From the NCBI GenBank assembly GCA_043801585.1, contig JAZDLX010000154.1, forward strand, positions 1 to 15,697: a stretch of DNA of 15,697 bases. The letters are read 5' to 3'. Under the pieces are notes generated by a model. It saw only the letters and a program-made list of their open reading frames with translations. It was not told the DNA's origin and did not search any database. Positions 1 to 9,602 of the stretch are shown here, one piece after another. Every line of letters starts with the position of its first letter. The first letter of the stretch is position 1. The position numbers and the translations under genes are program-made. The stretch comes from a bacterium. Its GTDB lineage: Bacteria > Electryoneota > Electryoneia > Electryoneales > Electryoneaceae.

Positions 1-1760
1 CCCTCGCCGTCGTTCTCTTCCGTTTTCTCACCATCTGCCCCCGTTCCCTCGATGCGGCGGACGAGATGGATGCGTGTCGCCTCATGCAGGCTGTCGTAAC
101 CGGTGAAGACCGAGTGCTTCTCCATCTCGGCGACAACGGTAAACTCTCCACCCGACACCCGGAAATTCCCCGCCGCCCGGCTCCGCTCCTTGGCGGCTTC
201 CATCTCGCGGTAGAACCCCTCGACGTCCACGGAGATTCCCCGTTCCCGCGCCATCTGCTCGGTCAGGTCGATGGGGAAACCGAACGTATCATAAAGCTTG
301 AAAGCATCAGATCCAGAGATTTCTAATGTGGCTTTCACAGATATGTAGTCAGTGATTTGACCATACAATTGAGGATCGGTGTTGCTCAGTCTGAGATCAC
401 TGTACAAATCTCTTAGATTCTTGTCAAAACTTTCGATGAGAGAAAATCCCGCTACGTCATTAAGAAGCAATTCGTTGAGTTGGCTTTCCATTGAAAGGAA
501 AGTGGAGTGATATTGGTCGTTCGTATATACAGGTGATTTTTGCATTGTCACCATTAACCTGTGCAATGCAGCTTTATTTTTCCCTGAAATCACGCGAGCA
601 AATTGACTTACATACATAGCACGCCATTCGGCGAGTCCAGTACCCAGCGTCCTCGCAAAAGCCTCTTCTTCCGCCTTCAACACCGCCTCGATGTGCTGCT
701 GGCGATCCTTCAGCTCGGAATAGTGGTCGCCCATGATCCCGATCAGCAACGGGACCAGCGACGGCAGGAACGGCGCTTCCAATACGAGTTCACGGATGAA
801 CCGTGCGGCGCGGCGCAGCACACGGCGCAGCACATAGCCACGTCCTTCATTGCCGGGCAATGCGCCGTCAGCGATGGCGAAGGCGAGCATCCGCAGATGG
901 TCGGCGATGGCGCGGTGAGGGATGTAGTCCTTCTCCTTGCCCCCCTCGGACGGCGGCAGGTAAGGCACACCGCTCGCATCGGCGATGGCGTCGATCAACG
1001 GCTTGAACAGGTCGGTCTCATAGTTGGAGTCCACACCGTTGAGCGCCCGCACGATCCGTTCCAGCCCCGCGCCGGTGTCCACATGCTTTGCCGGAAGATC
1101 GTGCAGCTTGCCATTTTCATCACGGTGGTACTGGATAAACACCAGGTTCCACAGCTCGATGAAACGGCCCGTGCCGCTGTTGGGTCCGTCGTTTTCGATT
1201 TCTTTACGGCCCGGTGCGGGTGCGCCGAGGTCGTAATGGATCTCGCTGCAGGGGCCGCAGGGGCCGGTCTCCCCCATCTCCCAGAAATTGTCCTTGTGAT
1301 TGTGCTTCGAGACATGCGACGGGTCGATGTCGGTCTCGGATTTCCACAGCTTGTACGCCTCGTCATCCTCGGTGAACACCGTGGCGAAGAGTTTCGACTT
1401 CTCGAGGCCGTAAACCTCCGTCATCAGCTCCCAGGCCCACCGAATCGCCTCGGCCTTGTAGTAGTCGCCGAAGGACCAGTTGCCGAGCATCTCAAAAAAG
1501 GTGTGGTGGTTCGGGCTCAGGCCGACCTCTTCCAGGTCGTTGTGCTTGCCGGAGACCCGGATGCATTTCTGGCTGTCGACAGCGCGGGAGTAGGGGCGGG
1601 TGCCGGTTCCGAGAAAGACATCCTTGAACTGATTCATCCCGGCGTTGGTGAACAGCAGGGTCGGATCGTCCGCAGGAACCACGGGCGACGACGGCACAAT
1701 GGTGTGCTGCCTGCTCTCGAAGAATTCGATGAACTGTCTGCGCACTTCCGAGGATGTCAT
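1..1760 (-). CDS. alaS: Alanine--tRNA ligase, 5' part (about 586 codons; 3' end lies beyond the left edge), with an in-frame insertion at ~321-632
   Basis: Manual translation of segments from ATG at 1760: MTSSEVRRQFIEFF...DDPTLLFTNAGMNQFK...QKCIRVSGKHNDLEEVG...HHTFFEMLGNWSFGDYYK...PGNEGRGYVLRR...EEEAFARTL...AFKLYDTFGFPIDLT. All motifs lie in one frame, and no stop was found in the segments translated codon by codon (720-270, 65-3). Confidence 0.98.
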   Translation of the reverse strand, partial: MTSSEVRRQFIEFFESRQHTIVPSSPVVPADDPTLLFTNAGMNQFKDVFLGTGTRPYSRAVDSQKCIRVSGKHNDLEEVGLSPNHHTFFEMLGNWSFGDYYKAEAIRWAWELMTEVYGLEKSKLFATVFTEDDEAYKLWKSETDIDPSHVSKHNHKDNFWEMGETGPCGPCSEIHYDLGAPAPGRKEIENDGPNSGTGRFIELWNLVFIQYHRDENGKLHDLPAKHVDTGAGLERIVRALNGVDSNYETDLFKPLIDAIADASGVPYLPPSEGGKEKDYIPHRAIADHLRMLAFAIADGALPGNEGRGYVLRRVLRRAARFIRELVLEAPFLPSLVPLLIGIMGDHYSELKDRQQHIEAVLKAEEEAFARTLGTGLAEWRAMYVSQFARVISGKNKAALHRLMVTMQKSPVYTNDQYHSTFLSMESQLNELLLNDVAGFSLIESFDKNLRDLYSDLRLSNTDPQLYGQITDYISVKATLEISGSDAFKLYDTFGFPIDLTEQMARERGISVDVEGFYREMEAAKERSRAAGNFRVSGGEFTVVAEMEKHSVFTGYDSLHEATRIHLVRRIEGTGADGEKTEENDGE

Positions 1761-1815
1761 TTCCGCACCTGTTTTCGTCACGTAGCCGCCCGGACGTCGT
1801 TCCGCCGAGCAGGGG

Positions 1816-1843
1816 AAAATACAAAAGTAAACGCTGCGCTCAA
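1816..1843 (-). promoter_or_regulatory. Possible sigma70-type promoter for alaS
   Basis: Minus strand reads TTGAGC-N16-TATTTT, about 55 bp upstream of the ATG. Motif match only. Confidence 0.3.
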
Positions 1844-1885
1844 GGGTTCGCTGGAATTCCACCGGAGAATTGATAACTGCGAACA

Positions 1886-1959
1886 GGGAGTAGGGACAGT
1901 TTCACTTTTCGACAGGGCCTGTCCCGACTCCGACACTTCGGGGACAAGGTAACTGTCCC
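1886..1959. repeat. Degenerate CTGTC(C/A)C-core palindromic repeats
   Basis: The reverse complement of 1886-1910 is GAAAAGTGAAACTGTCCCTACTCCC, similar to GAAAAGTAGTTACTGTCACTACTTTTC at 5440. Further cores GGGCCTGTCCC (~1915) and GGTAACTGTCCC (1948-1959). Confidence 0.55.
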
Positions 1960-2005
1960 AGTATAACGCCGGATTCAGAGAACCCGGCCTCGATAACCAG
2001 CGACT

Positions 2006-2035
2006 GAGACTCGACCCTGAAGGGTCGGGCCACCC
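2006..2035 (-). repeat. GTRG-type REP-like hairpin
   Basis: Minus strand GGGTGG-CCCGACCC-TTCA-GGGTCGAG-TCTC. Same architecture as the copies at 9235, 9317, 9397, 9479, 15485 and 15573. Confidence 0.7.
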
Positions 2036-2058
2036 ACCGTTTGCTATTGTCCCCATTC

Positions 2059-2201
2059 GTCACCCTGAATCCGCCGGCTGGCGGATGAAGGATCTTGTGT
2101 GTCATTGCGAGCGTAGCGAAGCAATCTCGTCGTTCGTTGTTCTCTTTACAAAAGGCGAGATTGCTTCGTCATCCGTCGGCTGACGGATTCCACGCAATGA
2201 C
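2059..2201. repeat. GTCA-type palindromic repeats: one GTCACCCTGA..GAAGGATCT unit and an inverted GTCATTGCG..GAAGCAATCTCG doublet
   Basis: GTCATTGCGA-GCGTAGC-GAAGCAATCTCG (2101-2129) pairs with CGAGATTGCTTC...CGCAATGAC (2156-2201). A related unit lies at 2059-2095. Confidence 0.75.
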
Positions 2202-2234
2202 AACAATGCAGACCCAGGTCCCGGGCCCGGTAAC

Positions 2235-2416
2235 GTGCCCCTGTTTGCTCAGCGCAGCGGGCAAACAGGGTTTATTCTAATTTTTCCCGGCCTGGACCGA
2301 AACCACATCGCGGGCAGGGACGCCCGCGCCACAGGTAATCCTTAAGCGTCGGGCGGGCGTCCCTGCCCGCCAGTCGCCAAACACAAAGAAACCCTGTTCG
2401 CAAGCGAACAGGGCCC
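2235..2416. repeat. Two nested inverted REP-like doublets
   Basis: Outer pair: CCCTGTTTGC..GCAAACAGGG-TTTA (2239-2274) and GAAA-CCCTGTTCGC-AA-GCGAACAGGG (2388-2413). Inner pair: minus-strand GTGG-CGCGGGCGTCCCTGCCCGCG (2309-2332) and plus-strand GTCG-GGCGGGCGTCCCTGCCCGCC (2348-2371). Confidence 0.7.
2379..2413 (-). terminator. Possible intrinsic terminator after the 2501-2704 gene, formed by a REP-like hairpin
   Basis: Minus strand: CCCTGTTCGC-TT-GCGAACAGGG followed by TTTCTTTGTGTTT. Confidence 0.45.
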
Positions 2417-2500
2417 AAATTCAACAGGACCGATATGTCGCCAGGCCGGTTCCCCGAGAAATGAACCTGTTAGTATCACAGCCAGGAACCTGTTCTCCCC

Positions 2501-2704
2501 TCAACGGCTGAGCGGTCCCCATTTTTTTTTCTTCCGTTCACGGCCTGTTACCCGCAAATACACGGCGTACAGACCGTTCACCAGCATCAGCCCGAAAAGA
2601 ACTCCTCCCACGGGATCGAACGCCTCGACCTTCAGGTTGCCGATCATCACTCCGAGTCCGACAAGCCCGATAAATCCGGCGATCAGTGCGAAAGACCCTC
2701 CCAA
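2501..2704 (-). CDS. Small hypothetical membrane protein (two hydrophobic helices, basic C-terminal tail)
   Basis: 67-aa ORF with TTG start 6 nt after the upstream stop. Hydrophobic segments FALIAGFIGLVGLGVMIG and VGGVLFGLMLVNGLYAVYL, tail RERKKKKW. Confidence 0.7.
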   Translation of the reverse strand: MGGSFALIAGFIGLVGLGVMIGNLKVEAFDPVGGVLFGLMLVNGLYAVYLRVTGRERKKKKWGPLSR

Positions 2705-2710
2705 CGGTAT

Positions 2711-3298
2711 CTACTCTTCGGTTTCTTTGTCTTCGCCCGCCGTCTTCTTCGCCCGTTTACGGGAGGAAACGGATCCGTTGTCGCTCTCCGCGGATTTTCC
2801 ATCATCTCCAGCGGTTTCCTCCGCGGGAGGTGGGGTCATTCCGGCGGTCCCGACAAATTCATCCTCCTCGTCCCACGCCTCATCCAGCTCCTCGTCACGG
2901 TAGGGTTTCGGAAGCACACGATCCAGAATGAAGACGGCCACTGCGATGACAATCCCCAGGACGAGGATCACTTTGAAAAAAGACCAACTACGCTTCTTTT
3001 CCATGGTTCCCTCGGGTAACAAATCTCGTTCACGAAGCGCCTGTACCGGGCGGCTGTCCATGACCCTCCCACGCAATCGTTCCTGCCAGGTTTCCGGCTC
3101 CGGGTGGTGGCTGAACGCGTGAACAGCATCCTGTCCGATCTGCCGCGCCTGCTCTGACGTTTTCTGCCAGGTCTTGCGCAGCGATCCCCAGGTCCAGGCG
3201 ATGGATATCCAGGTTGTGATCGCCCGGGCGGTGGTTCGTATCAGGTTAGCCAGCCAGGGCGACATTTTCGTCGATGTTGCGGGTGAATCCATCATCAT
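2711..3298 (-). CDS. Hypothetical single-pass membrane protein with acidic/charged C-terminus
   Basis: 195-aa ORF co-oriented with its neighbours. Clear TM segment FFKVILVLGIVIAVAVFIL preceded by KKR; acidic tail DEELDEAWDEEDE. Start position uncertain. Confidence 0.75.
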   Translation of the reverse strand: MMMDSPATSTKMSPWLANLIRTTARAITTWISIAWTWGSLRKTWQKTSEQARQIGQDAVHAFSHHPEPETWQERLRGRVMDSRPVQALRERDLLPEGTMEKKRSWSFFKVILVLGIVIAVAVFILDRVLPKPYRDEELDEAWDEEDEFVGTAGMTPPPAEETAGDDGKSAESDNGSVSSRKRAKKTAGEDKETEE

Positions 3299-3514: not shown

Positions 3515-4033
3515 TCAGGATGCGGAATCGTCCATCTCCCCGGAAACAGCCGCCACCGTCCGCCACACCGTTTCCGCGTCGAACCCCCTGGTGGCCAGCG
3601 ACCTTGCCAGGCGGCGGCGTTCGGTTATTTCAGAAAGAGACACTTTCCTTGTCCGAACCCATTTGCGCGCGAGGGCGAGCGCATTTGACCGTTCACGGTC
3701 GTCATCCCACGCTGCCAGCAGTTCCTTGCGGGCGGTTTCGACAGGAAGACCTCGATGGATCATTTTTTCGAGGGCTCTGCGCCTGCCCATCCCACCTCGG
3801 GACGCCAGCTCCGCCGCCCAATCCTCCGCGGTTCGGTCATCGTCGAGATAGCGAAGATCCGTGAGGCGTTCGATGGCCGCCTCGATCTCCTCGTTCTCGT
3901 ACTCACGCTGGCGCAGTTTGCGGCGGAGTTCAGCCGTTGTTTGCTGGCGTCGCGCAAGAAGGTCCAACGCCTTTTCATAGGCGGTGGGAGGTATTTTCGC
4001 TTCGCGGGGTTTCCTGCTCGACCGTTTCGTCAT
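3515..4033 (-). CDS. recX: Regulatory protein RecX
   Basis: ALDLLARRQQTTAELRRKL, YLDDDRTA and LATRGF match the RecX helical repeats; gene lies directly downstream of recA. Confidence 0.93.
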   Translation of the reverse strand: MTKRSSRKPREAKIPPTAYEKALDLLARRQQTTAELRRKLRQREYENEEIEAAIERLTDLRYLDDDRTAEDWAAELASRGGMGRRRALEKMIHRGLPVETARKELLAAWDDDRERSNALALARKWVRTRKVSLSEITERRRLARSLATRGFDAETVWRTVAAVSGEMDDSAS

Positions 4034-4102
4034 GGCATCAACAGTAAACCGGGCGGCACGAGAAACAGCGCGCCGCCCTGAAAGTTGGACGTTTACACGA
4101 TG

Positions 4103-5194
4103 CTACGCCTTCACCTCTTTTGCGGCCTTTTCCTCTTTTGGATTCTCTTTGCCGTTTTCAACGGGTTCGGCAGGGATGTCCCTCGCCGGGGTGAGGCCGA
4201 GTTTCTCCCGAACTTTGTTCTCGATATCAATCAGGAGTTTCGGGTTCTCCTCGAGGAACAGACGCACCCTTTCACGTCCCTGTCCAAGCCGCTCCTCTCC
4301 ATAGGAGAACCAGGTGCCCGCGCGATCAAGGATGCCGTGCTCGACAGCCAGGTCGATCACATCTCCGCTGTGATTGATTCCTTTTCCGTAGAGGATGTCG
4401 AATTCCGCCTCACGGAACGGTGACGCCATCTTGTTCTTGACCACCTTCACCCGTGTCCGGTTGCCAACCGGGTCCGTGCCCTCCTTGATTGTTGCGATGC
4501 GACGGATGTCCATCCGCACGGAACTGTAGAACTTGAGGGCGTTGCCGCCGGTGGTCGTTTCGGGGTTGCCGAACATCACGCCGATCTTCATCCGGATCTG
4601 GTTGATGAAGACAAACGCCGTGTGGCTCTTCGCAACCGTACCGGTCAGTTTGCGCAACGCCTGCGACATCAACCGCGCCTGCAGGCCGACGTGGCTGTCG
4701 CCCATCTCTCCCTCGATCTCGGCACGGGGGGTCAGCGCCGCGACCGAGTCGATGACCACGATGTCAAGCGCCCCGGAGCGGACCAGTGTCTCCGCGATTT
4801 CGAGCGCCTGTTCCCCGTTGTCCGGCTGGCTGATCAGCAGGTTCTCGATGTCCACTCCGAGCGCCTTGGCGTATTTGGGGTCGAGCGCGTGTTCCGCGTC
4901 GACAAACGCCGCGTACCCTCCCGTCTTCTGCGCCTCAGCGATCAGGTGCAGGGTCAGCGTGGTCTTGCCGCTCGCCTCGGGACCGTAGATTTCGGTCACC
5001 CGCCCGCGCGGCACGCCGCCGATGCCGAGTGCCGCATCGAGCGCGAGCGAACCGGTGGAAATCGTCTCCACCTTGACCTTCGCCCCTTCCTCGCCCAACC
5101 GCATGATGCTGCCCTTGCCGAACTGTTTTTCAATCTGCGAGATGGCCAGCTCAATCGCCTGTTCTTTCGGGTTTTCCTGGTTCTTCGCTGCCAT
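4103..5194 (-). CDS. recA: Recombinase A
   Basis: [23 protein letters not shown] (Walker A), [46 protein letters not shown]. Start is 5194 or 5200. Confidence 0.99.
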
Positions 5195-5373
5195 AATCAT
5201 CCCATTGTCAATGGGGAGAAAACGCCATGTTCACCGCTCTCCCCGGTTATCGTTGTCTTTTCGATATCACAAAACATCAATGATGATGCGGCTCTTGCCG
5301 TATTGCACCGATCACTCTCTCGACGCTGAATCAGCGGCGGCTCGTACCGACAGCTCACGTTCACATCCCATCG

Positions 5374-5466
5374 CGAAAAGTAACGACAGTGACTACTTTT
5401 CGTCCCATCCGGTTTCAGTGCGCTACCATTACCTCTCAGGAAAAGTAGTTACTGTCACTACTTTTC
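5374..5466. repeat. Inverted doublet of 27-bp imperfect palindromes (CTGTCAC core)
   Basis: GAAAAGTAACGACAGTGACTACTTTTC (5375-5401) is the reverse complement, with 3 mismatches, of GAAAAGTAGTTACTGTCACTACTTTTC (5440-5466). Confidence 0.8.
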
Positions 5467-5477
5467 GTTCGCACACC

Positions 5478-6053
5478 CTATTGCAAACCGGATGTCAACC
5501 GGACGCTTTCGAGAGCCCGGTGTTCCGGTCCGTCCGGCGTCAATTTGCTCTCGAAGAGCGTCAAGGTATCGAAGACGTAGAAGAACGACTCGACCTTCAC
5601 CGACTGCAGCCTCTTCAGAAGCGGGCTGTGCCGCTCGACGAATTTCACCCTCCCGAGCGTCAGATGCGGCGAAAACGACCTCTCTTCGGCGGGCAATCCG
5701 GCACGCTGTCCCGCCTCGGCGATGGACGACTGTATCCTTTTCAGCTCCTCGTTCTCGCCGATCCCCACCCAGATCACCCGCGGGTTGCTCCGCTTCGGAA
5801 ACGCCCCGAGCTCGCCGACCTTGATTCGCAGGGCTCCATATAACTCACCAGCCGTTTTCACGGCCTCTCGCAGCGCCTCCACCTGCTGGTCGTCCGCCTC
5901 GCCTGCAAAGAACAACGTCAGGTGCATCTGCTTCAGGTTCACCCACCGGATTTTCGCATCCGGCGTTCCGACGAGTTTCGGGAGATCCACAAGCCTCTGG
6001 CGCAATTCCCCCGGAAGCTCCAGGGCGACAAATACCCGTCTCGATGCACTCAC
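5478..6053 (-). CDS. thpR: RNA 2',3'-cyclic phosphodiesterase (2H family, LigT/ThpR)
   Basis: RVFVAL N-terminus, two HLTL motifs (MHLTLFF, PHLTLGR), GAFP..PRVIWVG, and C-terminal ESKL..GPEH. GTG start overlaps the cinA stop (GTGA). Confidence 0.95.
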   Translation of the reverse strand: MSASRRVFVALELPGELRQRLVDLPKLVGTPDAKIRWVNLKQMHLTLFFAGEADDQQVEALREAVKTAGELYGALRIKVGELGAFPKRSNPRVIWVGIGENEELKRIQSSIAEAGQRAGLPAEERSFSPHLTLGRVKFVERHSPLLKRLQSVKVESFFYVFDTLTLFESKLTPDGPEHRALESVRLTSGLQ

Positions 6054-7321
6054 AGCAGCGTCGGCTCCCCGCCCTCGTTGACTCCTTCTGCCAGCATGTC
6101 AAGCAGCAGCATCATCGCTTTCGCTACACTCCGCTGGCGGACATTGTCGCGGTCCTTGTCAAGGAGATACCGCCGGTGCGTCACCTGTTTTTCATCGGCG
6201 TACCCGATGTAGACGAGGCCCACCGGTTTTTCCTCCGTCCCGCCGTCGGGACCTGCAATACCGGTGATCGAGATAGCGATGTCCGCCCGGCTTTTGGCTA
6301 GCGCCCCTGTTGCCATCGCTTCGGCGACTTCCGGGGAAACCGCCCCGTATTTTTCCAGCAACTCCAGCGGAACGCCAAGCTCCTCGTGCTTCGATTCGTT
6401 GGAATAGGTGACCCATCCGCGCTCGAACCACGCGCTGGACCCGGGAATATCGGTGAACCGCTTGCCAAGGAAGCCGCCGGTGCAGGATTCCGCGAGGGCG
6501 ATACGTTTGGCGCTCTTCTTCAGCAGCTCGCCAACCCCCTTTTCCAGCGAAATGTTCTCCCCGACGCCGAAAATGTGGTTTCCCACCTTCTCCCTGATCA
6601 GCGCCTCGGCAGCGTCCAGGTGAGCCGCGCCTTCCACCGGGGTCTCGGCCTGCACCGTCAACCGCAGGCGGACACCCGAATAGCCGGGGAGAAACGCCAG
6701 CGCGGCGTGTTCGAGGATCTGCTGACGGTTGTCCAGCTTTTCGTAAAGAGCCGCCTCCGCGAGACCGTAGGTGTGAAGCGACCGGATCAACGTCACCGGC
6801 CCGCGATGCATCTTCACCAGCCTCGGAAGAACGAACCCGGTGATCATCGCCCGCATCTCGAGCGGCACTCCAGGCATCGCCGCAAACACCCGCCCCTGTT
6901 TCTCGATCCAGATCCCCGGTGCGGTGCCATGCCGGTTCGGAATCGGCGTCGCCCCCTCGGGGAATTCCGCCTGTTCACGGCTGGTTTCGATGAACTCGAG
7001 CTGTTTGCTCTTGTACGCCTCCCGTACCTGTTCCAGCAGGTCGTTGCGGAAAACAACCGGCAGGTCAAAGAACTTTGCCAGCACACTCTTTGTATGGTCA
7101 TCGTGCGTCGGCCCAAGTCCGCCGGTGATCAGTACGGCATCCGAGCGGCGGAACGCTGTCTGGAACGACTCGCGGATCACCTCCGGGTCGTCCGGAATCA
7201 CCGAAATGAAGCGAATGGCGATCCCTTCGGAGAGCAGGGTCTGGGCGATGAACCGGGAGTTGCTGTCCTGGATCTGCCCGAGGAGGATTTCATCCCCAAT
7301 GGCAATGATTTCAGCGTTCAT
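6050..7321 (-). CDS. cinA: Competence/damage-inducible protein A (MoCF-like N-domain plus PncC-type NMN deamidase domain)
   Basis: AEIIAIGDEILLGQIQDSN, TGGLGPTHDDHT, GTAPG, MPGVPLEM, AESCTGG, PGSSAWF, YSNESK, GAVS, ITGIAGPDGGTEEKPVG. Confidence 0.97.
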   Translation of the reverse strand: MNAEIIAIGDEILLGQIQDSNSRFIAQTLLSEGIAIRFISVIPDDPEVIRESFQTAFRRSDAVLITGGLGPTHDDHTKSVLAKFFDLPVVFRNDLLEQVREAYKSKQLEFIETSREQAEFPEGATPIPNRHGTAPGIWIEKQGRVFAAMPGVPLEMRAMITGFVLPRLVKMHRGPVTLIRSLHTYGLAEAALYEKLDNRQQILEHAALAFLPGYSGVRLRLTVQAETPVEGAAHLDAAEALIREKVGNHIFGVGENISLEKGVGELLKKSAKRIALAESCTGGFLGKRFTDIPGSSAWFERGWVTYSNESKHEELGVPLELLEKYGAVSPEVAEAMATGALAKSRADIAISITGIAGPDGGTEEKPVGLVYIGYADEKQVTHRRYLLDKDRDNVRQRSVAKAMMLLLDMLAEGVNEGGEPTLL

Positions 7322-8016: not shown

Positions 8017-9015
8017 ATGACAACCCACGGTGACAAGGAGAAACGGCGGCTTGAACTGAGCCGCATGGCGGATGGTTTCAGGGCGTCGCACGCCCTGCTT
8101 ACTGCGGTTCACCTCGGTGTCTTCCGGATCCTTTCCGACAGCCCAGCGACAGCTTCCTCGATAGCGAAGGATCTCTCCCTCGCCCAGCGGGAACTGGACC
8201 TCCTGTTGAAAGCGCTGACCGGTCTCGACCTGCTCGCTCTCGACGAGGACGGGCGCTACCGGCTGCACGGTCTCAGCGACGAGTTTCTGCGCGACGGAGC
8301 GGATGGGTACATGGGCGACATCCTGCACCACAACTACCACTTGATGCGCCGCTGGGCGCGGATGGACGAGGTGATCAGCGACGGCAAACCCCTCCCCCGC
8401 AAAGACGGCCGCAGCCCCAGTGAACTGCGTGCCTTCATCCTTGGCATGCAGAACACTGCACGCCAGTCCGCCGTGGAGGTTGGAGACGCTCTCGATCTTC
8501 GCGGAGTTCGAAACATCCTCGACCTCGGGGGTGGTCCGGGCACCTACCTCTACACCCTCCTCGAGAAAATACCCGGGGCCGAAGGTGCGATCCTGGATTT
8601 TCCGGAGGTCATCGAAATCGCCCGGGAGGAGTGCCCTCGTGAACTGAAAGAAAGGGTGACGTTCCTCGAAGGCGACATCTTCGAGCGGGAATACAAAGGT
8701 CCGTGGGACCTGATTGTGATCTCCAACATCATCCACAGCAACACCCTGGATGGCATCCGCGCCATGATCGGTAAGTCTGCCGCCGCCCTCGCGCCGGGTG
8801 GAAGAATTATGGTCAAGGATTTCTTCCTCGACGTCAGCCGCACGGTCCCCGCCGAGGCCGCGCTGTTCAGCTTGAACATGATGATTTCCAACCCGGGCCG
8901 CGCTTACAGCGAAGATGAACTGCGCCATGTTCTGGAAGCTGCCGGACTTGACGTCGTGCAGAGATTAGGTGTGGGTTCGCACTCGGGTATTCTTGTCGCC
9001 TGTAAGGCAGGATGA
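8017..9015 (+). CDS. Class I SAM-dependent O-methyltransferase with N-terminal dimerisation/wHTH domain (ASMT/CrtF-like); substrate unknown
   Basis: LLTAVHLGVF..L (dimerisation domain), ILDLGGGPG (motif I), LDFPEVI, GDIF, SNIIH, LAPGGRI. ATG at 8017 preceded by AAGGGAGAG. Confidence 0.9.
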   Translation: MTTHGDKEKRRLELSRMADGFRASHALLTAVHLGVFRILSDSPATASSIAKDLSLAQRELDLLLKALTGLDLLALDEDGRYRLHGLSDEFLRDGADGYMGDILHHNYHLMRRWARMDEVISDGKPLPRKDGRSPSELRAFILGMQNTARQSAVEVGDALDLRGVRNILDLGGGPGTYLYTLLEKIPGAEGAILDFPEVIEIAREECPRELKERVTFLEGDIFEREYKGPWDLIVISNIIHSNTLDGIRAMIGKSAAALAPGGRIMVKDFFLDVSRTVPAEAALFSLNMMISNPGRAYSEDELRHVLEAAGLDVVQRLGVGSHSGILVACKAG

Positions 9016-9020
9016 GACGA

Positions 9021-9510
9021 TGGGCCCTTGTTTACTTGCAACCGAAGCGCAGCACAGCTCACGCATCGAAGGTGCGTAAACCGGGTTTACTCTGATTCTA
9101 CTTCTGGTGTGCAGTCCAGCTACCCCGATACTTCGGAATGCCTCACCCTTTGTCATTCCCGCGAAAGCGGGAATCCAGAAGGGTGGCCCGGCTGCTCCGC
9201 CCTTTGTCATTCCCGCGAAAGCGGGAATCCAGGAGGGTGGCCCGGCTGCTCCGTCAGCCGGGTTTCTAATATGCTTTTGTTTCCTGCATGCAATGGCTAG
9301 TCCAATAAAGCCATATGAAACCCGGGACTGAAGTCCCGGGCTACCCGTCCGAAATGCCCCACTCTTTGTCATTCCCGCGAAAGCGGGAATCCAGGAGGGT
9401 GGCCCGGCTGCTCCGTCAGCCGGGTTTCTATTATGCTTTTGTTTCCTGCATGCAATGGCTAGTCCAATAAAGCCATATGAAACCCGGGACTGAAGTCCCG
9501 GGCCACCCGT
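9021..9510. repeat. Tandem mosaic repeat array (BIME-like): three GTCATTCCCGCGAAAGCGGGAATCCAG units interleaved with inverted GTRG-REP doublets; 162-bp period
   Basis: GTCATTCCC units start at 9152, 9206 and 9368. The blocks 9206-9348 and 9368-9510 differ at only two positions seen. REP arms at 9235-9266/9317-9348 and 9397-9428/9479-9510. Confidence 0.92.
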
Positions 9511-9602
9511 CGTTTGGATGAGCTTGAGACTGTCAGGGAGTTCGCCGAGAATCCCAACGAGTGTTTGCTGAGATTCCTTTAACCAAATCACTCATCCAGG
9601 AC

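Follow-up and report, generated by a model that had tools for sequence, protein, structure and literature searches.

A low-GC in-frame insert beside the G3:U70-reading motif of an Electryoneaceae alanyl-tRNA synthetase and its likely import by recombination

The rule by which alanyl-tRNA synthetase (AlaRS) identifies its tRNA is a textbook case. In the Escherichia coli enzyme, Tyr399, Asp400 and Gly403 contact the G3:U70 base pair of tRNA-Ala and Asn303 provides a major-groove contact to U70 (PMC6055181), and AlaRS is described as an enzyme with a single prototype structure across all of biology (PMC8887476). Here we analyze an alaS gene from a bacterium of the Electryoneaceae that carries an in-frame insert of 104 codons immediately before this recognition motif. 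The gene lies on contig JAZDLX010000154.1, which was studied over its entire 15,697 bases and is called the window in the following; the source genome (GCA_043801585.1, labelled G000) is assembled into 225 contigs, 3.28 Mb in total, and is 92% complete.

Mosaic chromosomal genes formed by interspecies homologous recombination are known from penA of Neisseria and pbp2x of Streptococcus. The alaS locus resembles them in having a sharp-edged divergent block in a native housekeeping gene, with putative crossovers in conserved stretches. In contrast to penA and pbp2x, where homologous sequence is replaced under antibiotic selection, the block adds about 90 residues and has no known donor or selective agent. 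Rickettsia palindromic elements (RPEs) are multi-copy repeats translated inside genes, and they likewise place an extra, surface-tolerated in-frame segment in an essential protein; the alaS insert, however, is single-copy, has no terminal repeats and is three times longer. A highly variable segment between well-conserved segments of one gene is also the hallmark of segmentally variable, or 'mosaic', genes (Zheng, Roberts and Kasif 2004), the list of which includes aminoacyl-tRNA synthetases, with the insertion domain of prolyl-tRNA synthetase as an example (PMC387263). Unlike in those genes, some close relatives have the segment in alaS and others do not, and its foreign composition runs into the conserved flanks. 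AlaRS and its loop are not mentioned in the passages of that paper available to us. For AlaRS of Spirochaetes, clade-diagnostic conserved signature indels of 2 and 4 residues have been described at other positions (PMC3726837). They share with our insert that an in-frame addition to a universal enzyme is restricted to a clade, but whereas they are tiny and fixed, the insert is large, patchy within its class, hypervariable and, in half of its carriers, compositionally foreign. In the literature searched, supplements aside, no publication was found that reports inserts of great or varying length at this loop of AlaRS.

The minus-strand frame 3-1760 of the window encodes the N-terminal 586 residues of a class II AlaRS. 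It matched PF01411 (tRNA-synt_2c) with an E-value of 2.1e-173 and 578 bits in two stretches that are split by the insert. The insert is bounded by ...EEEAFARTLGTGL on the 5' side (ending GTGL) and by ISGSDAFKLYDTFGFP on the 3' side, and it ends 10 residues ahead of the Y490/D491/G494 motif that reads G3:U70. Its GC content and its GC content at third codon positions (GC3) are both 0.40, compared with 0.61 and 0.81 before and 0.60 and 0.75 after the insert. A GC content of 0.40 or less was found in 591 of 61,754 sampled genome windows of 312 nucleotides (0.96%). The codons TTA, CTA and TCA occur six times in the insert and never in the remaining 482 alaS codons. Read in any of its five alternative frames, the insert is interrupted by 5-9 stops. 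Given its composition, 104 codons would be stop-free with a probability of 0.0011, and the insert frame is therefore maintained by selection. A first-pass annotation of the window, made from the letters alone, had counted 104 stop-free in-frame codons, 119 G or C among the 300 bases at 301-600 and six TTA/CTA/TCA codons, all of which proved exact on recount. It had also given 603-1760 as the range free of these codons; their absence holds for all codons outside the insert.

The compositional anomaly is wider than the insert. Two breakpoints were fitted to the third codon positions, with edge ranges taken as all positions within 2 log-likelihood (lnL) units. The fit gained 30.4 lnL units and placed the start of the low-GC3 patch at residues 362-374 and its end at residues 486-496. 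The patch overruns the insert (residues 377-480) on both sides, taking in 13 conserved codons before it and 11 after it. Both edges fall inside EEEAFARTL and AFKLYD, the two motifs that are conserved best in this region; in a 77-sequence AlaRS alignment, E365, F368 and G375 are invariant. Moreover, the edges are steps and not slopes: over a handful of codons, GC3 changes from about 0.9 to 0.4. Codons ending in A or T run on from the insert into ISGSDAFKLYD, as already seen in the first-pass annotation. As controls, the insert-free sister gene gained 6.6 lnL units, two relatives with inserts of host GC gained 5.7 and 4.3, and 30 shuffles gained at most 9.5. The block is hence compositionally distinct and sharply bounded within conserved sequence, which is one of the features by which mosaic genes are recognized, and the patch at 288..671 is likely a recombination tract. 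Conserved AlaRS codons written in a foreign dialect inside the block are expected from a crossover with a foreign alaS allele and not from an insertion of unrelated DNA. Crossovers in the two most conserved motifs would, moreover, imply that the donor, too, was an insert-bearing alaS gene.

We also scanned the genome for comparable cases, as the first-pass annotation had suggested. Among 1,881 coding-like open reading frames (ORFs) of at least 250 residues, alaS had the 14th-lowest GC3 in an 80-codon window. None of nine other candidates inspected by eye had a block with sharp edges, set between two flanks of high GC3, in a recognizable conserved protein. An aspartyl-tRNA-synthetase-like gene (G000:C77:481-2313) has a C-terminal GC3 of about 0.4-0.5 compared with a gene average of 0.63.

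We think it reasonably probable that homologous recombination with an alaS allele of lower GC brought in this real in-frame insert of 104 codons, predicted to fold as a helical bundle, together with its flanks. The donor allele would already have carried the insert, and crossovers in the two conserved motifs would have brought it in with about a dozen conserved codons per side. The module would probably belong to, or replace, a fast-evolving AlaRS insertion domain that is specific to the class. The first-pass annotation had proposed a cassette acquired by recombination through conserved flanks; the fitted edges inside conserved motifs on both sides agree with this, whereas a donor was not found.

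AlphaFold2 models of residues 332-531 (predicted local distance difference test, pLDDT, 87.8) and of all 586 residues (pLDDT 88.2, predicted template modelling score 0.84) agreed with each other. Over the insert, blocks of ten residues reached a pLDDT of 68-93 in the 586-residue model and of 71-86 in the 200-residue model. Helices are predicted at residues 377-391, prolonging a native helix by 15 residues, and at 394-408, 415-431, 435-459 and 463-476. After the last helix, a short strand leads back into the helix of SDAFKLYDTFG. According to these models, the insert is predicted to form an all-helical bundle that sits on the tip of a helical hairpin, just before LYDTFGFP, and would project from there; a helical domain had also been anticipated in the first-pass annotation. 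A Foldseek search of the PDB, of a kind that annotation had recommended, matched only AlaRS fragments through the flanks and yielded no relative of the insert. The matched structures were the canonical tRNA-recognition (Mid2) hairpins of the E. coli catalytic fragment (3HXU) and of A. aeolicus (1RIQ), with E-values from 6.5e-4 to 2e-2. Unlike this canonical hairpin, which has a loop of 16-30 residues in 115 of 117 genes (see below), the hairpin here carries a predicted helical bundle of roughly 100 residues.

Recognition of tRNA-Ala appears to be left intact. Y490, D491 and G494 are the equivalents of E. coli Tyr399, Asp400 and Gly403, and N304 is the equivalent of Asn303 (PMC6055181); all four are conserved in this AlaRS as judged from the 77-sequence alignment. 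The part that the first-pass annotation had assigned to E. coli Asp400 in reading G3:U70 agrees with that source. G3 and U70 are present in all three tRNA-Ala genes of the genome. As these contacts are intact and seven assessable relatives have no long insert, the insert is presumably inessential for aminoacylation. The eight long inserts of the class (see below) have net charges from -10 to +1, i.e., they are neutral to acidic, which argues against an added RNA-binding arm. The insert may rather be a tolerated or accessory protein surface module that is exposed to solvent.

We compared the loop within the class, which is represented by 16 species genomes, all of one family. Fifteen could be assessed at the loop; the genus mate G001 was excluded, its alaS being split over two contigs with the loop unassembled. 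Long inserts of 103-133 residues occur at the same loop in eight of the 15 genomes, with 103-113 residues in seven of them, and the remaining seven genomes have linkers of 16-41 residues. Our insert, with its 104 residues, sits at the same position as the others, between GL..F and ISGxDAF. In an AlaRS tree made without the insert columns, insert carriers are scattered, and G000 is the sister of the insert-free G008 (support 100/98). This tree forces at least three gains or losses of the insert. Four of the eight carriers (G000, G015, G002 and G011) have significant low-GC3 patches with lnL gains of 20.5-30.4, and in G011 and G002 the patch is again bounded within, or past, the two conserved motifs. 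The inserts of the other four (G013, G014, G005 and G012) have host composition. According to shuffle tests, six inserts (G002, G005, G012, G013, G014 and G015) constitute one very diverged family (z 3.6-10.9).

The inserts diverge rapidly. Among members of one genus, identity is 86-90% over the N-terminal 369 residues, compared with 21-32% over the inserts. Between G013 and G014, the ratio of nonsynonymous to synonymous substitution rates (dN/dS) was 0.20 for the insert and 0.019 for the catalytic part, with dN of 0.109 versus 0.009 and dS of 0.54 versus 0.50; between G005 and G012, insert dN/dS was 0.07 at saturated dS. With a dN/dS of 0.07-0.20, purifying selection acts on both resident pairs. 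The resident inserts are thus protein domains that are being maintained, with a rate of evolution about ten times that of the core. The G013 and G014 inserts have a GC3 of 0.83-0.84, as in their flanks, although they evolve fast. Relaxed constraint alone hence does not lower GC3, and the composition step in our gene is therefore evidence for import. The variable slot assumed in the first-pass annotation is supported by the eight long inserts among 15 genomes and their patchy distribution on the tree; purifying selection on the two resident pairs, however, makes it a maintained domain in part of the class and more than a site of swapping. Its suggestion that relatives might have unrelated low-GC inserts of variable length was borne out in part: four of eight inserts are low in GC, and those of G000 and G011 match no other, but six of the eight are one diverged family.

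Searches for a donor or a homologue were negative throughout. Residues 365-495, searched by word index against 5.8 billion proteins, recovered only the window's own protein, and the same type of search restricted to longer proteins returned no relative. With phmmer, no match was found among 1.84 billion representatives; in a set clustered at 50% identity, however, a representative that has no insert can conceal alleles that have one. A tblastn search of phages and plasmids found none, viral contigs contained no confirmed relative of the insert, and when all 79 genomes of the phylum were searched in six frames, the window itself was the only match. ESM Atlas gave zero matches at 0.9 or above, and Foldseek gave none against viral models at E ≤ 0.001. 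Scans of metagenomes and species genomes yielded only distant AlaRS genes of at most 69% identity.

Several observations weigh against import. Local alignment of our insert with the seven other class inserts gave z values of -0.8 to 2.1, i.e., no significant similarity, and hhalign gave an E-value of 0.31 over 14 columns. What would tie the insert to the class family is its site, its length and a single colinear xDKNL motif. The G011 insert likewise matches none of the others (z ≤ 2.1). Moreover, a ten-fold rate would take hosts of 89% identity to about 30% in the insert, and amino-acid divergence alone is therefore no proof of swapping. Patch GC3 climbs monotonically with host GC3 in the four cases (0.40/0.80, 0.26/0.67, 0.24/0.58 and 0.19/0.50; n=4). 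All four odd patches deviate downward, with no insert being GC-richer than its host, which also fits a local process or partial amelioration. In addition, no donor or close relative of the insert was found in any collection searched. Some of these points are shared by a reading in which the insert is an old class-specific domain with a single ancestral origin, inherited vertically with three or four losses and evolved beyond recognition. Low GC would then have arisen in place, e.g., by mutation biased towards AT at a site where alleles are too divergent for recombination to enrich GC. The common site and similar length, the kinship of six of the eight inserts, a rate ratio of about 10 and the downward, host-tracking shifts with no donor found all suit such a history. 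It is harder to reconcile with GC3 steps inside conserved motifs, with fast-evolving resident inserts that stay at host GC3, with a GC content below that of 99% of genome windows and with a sister lineage of G000 that has no insert, and we regard it as rather unlikely.

A reading that concerns function would be compatible with recombination: the module would be a hypervariable surface on the tRNA-acceptor side, with its turnover driven by diversifying selection from a docking phage or toxin protein or from another partner. The role in evading or sensing phage or toxin proteins that the first-pass annotation had raised is likewise speculative. Such selection would fit the way in which one loop turns over and is exchanged while the rest of the enzyme is conserved, and contig breaks at the loop in several assemblies hint at variants within populations. 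Yet resident inserts are under purifying and not positive selection overall, no partner is known and seven of the 15 relatives manage without a long insert; we hold this explanation to be improbable. The bolder generalization that the hairpin tip positioning the G3:U70-reading Asp is a hot spot across phyla, where fast-evolving helical modules are retained and traded as a variable face of an essential and otherwise invariant enzyme, and are kept diverse by an arms race with a phage, toxin or regulatory protein that docks on AlaRS next to the tRNA acceptor stem, is a long shot to the same degree. A selfish in-frame passenger, e.g., a decayed homing or transposable element in a tolerant loop, might be suggested by the highly conserved motifs on both sides, as found at intein and homing sites, and by the patchy distribution. 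We consider it very unlikely, given that the insert is present once in the genome, that its edges have no terminal inverted or direct repeats, that Pfam revealed no nuclease, transposase or intein domains, that the helical fold had no matches and that resident copies are under purifying selection. Finally, the patch lies 288 nucleotides from a contig end in a metagenome-assembled genome of 225 contigs, and all four low-GC cases come from fragmented metagenome-assembled genomes (70-260 contigs), which counts against import as well and might point to an assembly chimera. This would, however, require two in-frame switches, separated by 384 nucleotides, between genes whose third positions mostly differ and which are therefore unlikely to share long k-mers. 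High-GC alaS also resumes past the patch, the same architecture recurs in four separate genomes, and genomes of one and two contigs (G005 and G013) have long inserts at the loop, too; a chimera is hence extremely improbable.

Three further candidates were rejected. The insert begins with Ala377 after Leu and ends with Leu-Glu480 before Ile, no Hint or intein family of Pfam matched at E ≤ 1, and the predicted fold is all-helical; an intein was therefore rejected, and the first-pass annotation had seen no intein signature either. Pfam matched nothing on the insert at E ≤ 1 except TPR_20 at 0.16. A translated multi-copy repeat, akin to RPEs or miniature inverted-repeat transposable elements, was dismissed as the stretch is single-copy (one match in the 92%-complete, 3.28-Mb assembly) and no terminal inverted or direct repeats were found at the two insert edges. 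A diversity-generating retroelement target was dismissed because a DNA search of the own genome, in its incomplete assembly, matched only the stretch itself. Sigma-70-like sites were present in the insert once, compared with 1.1 expected by chance.

In the sample of 79 genomes of the phylum, two further inserts were found at the alaS loop. One, in another family of the phylum (L115; G056:C146, 117-545, minus strand), has about 143 residues with internal repeats of the Q-P-x-x-E type and is not found in two genus mates. The other (L116; G032:C21, ORF codons 334-373) is a Gly-rich low-complexity run (GFGGG-like) confined to the loop, with a GC3 of 0.10 versus 0.65. Its codons nearly all end in A or T, and it looks like a local repeat expansion and not an import. 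Contigs end at or beside the alaS loop in five other assemblies of the phylum, with some of the ends overlapping (Table 1). This suggests branches of the assembly graph, i.e., variants within the populations. More broadly, AlaRS was sampled at 160 loci of metagenomes and species genomes, which yielded 117 parsable genes. The linker had 16-30 residues in 115 of them and 61 and 84 residues in the other two. The 61-residue insert, from a species-genome locus labelled uncultured Bacteroidetes (L158), has a GC3 of 0.38 compared with 0.66 in its flanks; the change-point fit found no significant patch in this gene.

The contig end truncates alaS at residue 586, so that the assembly has neither the editing nor the C-Ala part; no C-terminal part of alaS was found elsewhere in its 92% complete sequence. 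Upstream, recX, recA and cinA (3515..7321, minus strand) provide a native, ordinary chromosomal setting for alaS. Nested inverted repeats lie upstream of alaS at 2060-2340, where, e.g., 2103-2129 pairs with 2156-2209 and palindromes are found near 2068-2087 and 2171-2188, together with three terminator-like hairpins. The region may represent either some repeat element or a leader structure; Rfam gave zero matches in window positions 1-3000. Three open frames of 195-273 residues, at 2711-3298 (minus), 5022-5843 (plus) and 8965-9591 (minus), had no Pfam family at E ≤ 1e-5, and some of them may be shadow frames of high-GC genes.

Table 1. Positions of the alaS insert, its surroundings and neighbouring genes in the window, and of contig ends at the alaS loop in other assemblies of the phylum.
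Feature	Coordinates	Strand	Basis or remark
alaS, N-terminal part, 586 codons	3..1760	-	translation; ATG at 1760-1758; PF01411
In-frame insert, 104 stop-free codons, residues 377-480	321..632	-	coordinates, open frame, composition
Low-GC3 patch, residues 364-491, GC3 0.40 inside and 0.80 outside	288..671	-	two-breakpoint likelihood fit
Conserved motif EEAFARTLGTGL, residues 365-376, 5' of insert	633..668	-	alignment; codons partly A/T-ending already
Conserved motif AFKLYDTFGFP, residues 486-496, holds Y490/D491/G494	273..305	-	77-sequence alignment
N304	849..851	-	nearly invariant in 77-sequence alignment; outside patch
recX	3515-4033	-	Pfam; upstream of alaS, same strand
recA	4103-5200	-	Pfam; upstream of alaS, same strand
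cinA	6050-7321	-	Pfam; upstream of alaS, same strand
Contig ends at alaS loop	G001:C20 end + C60 end; G034:C18 start; G042:C55/C85; G073:C277/C354; G078:C108 end

In practical terms, the alaS loop breaks assemblies and can mislead phylogenies based on alaS. At the same time, the class offers a natural set of AlaRS enzymes with and without the insert. A module that is dispensable yet selectively maintained, that lies 10 residues from the key Asp, and that is patchy and apparently exchanged as a cassette, points to an unrecognized interaction or regulatory surface on this enzyme.

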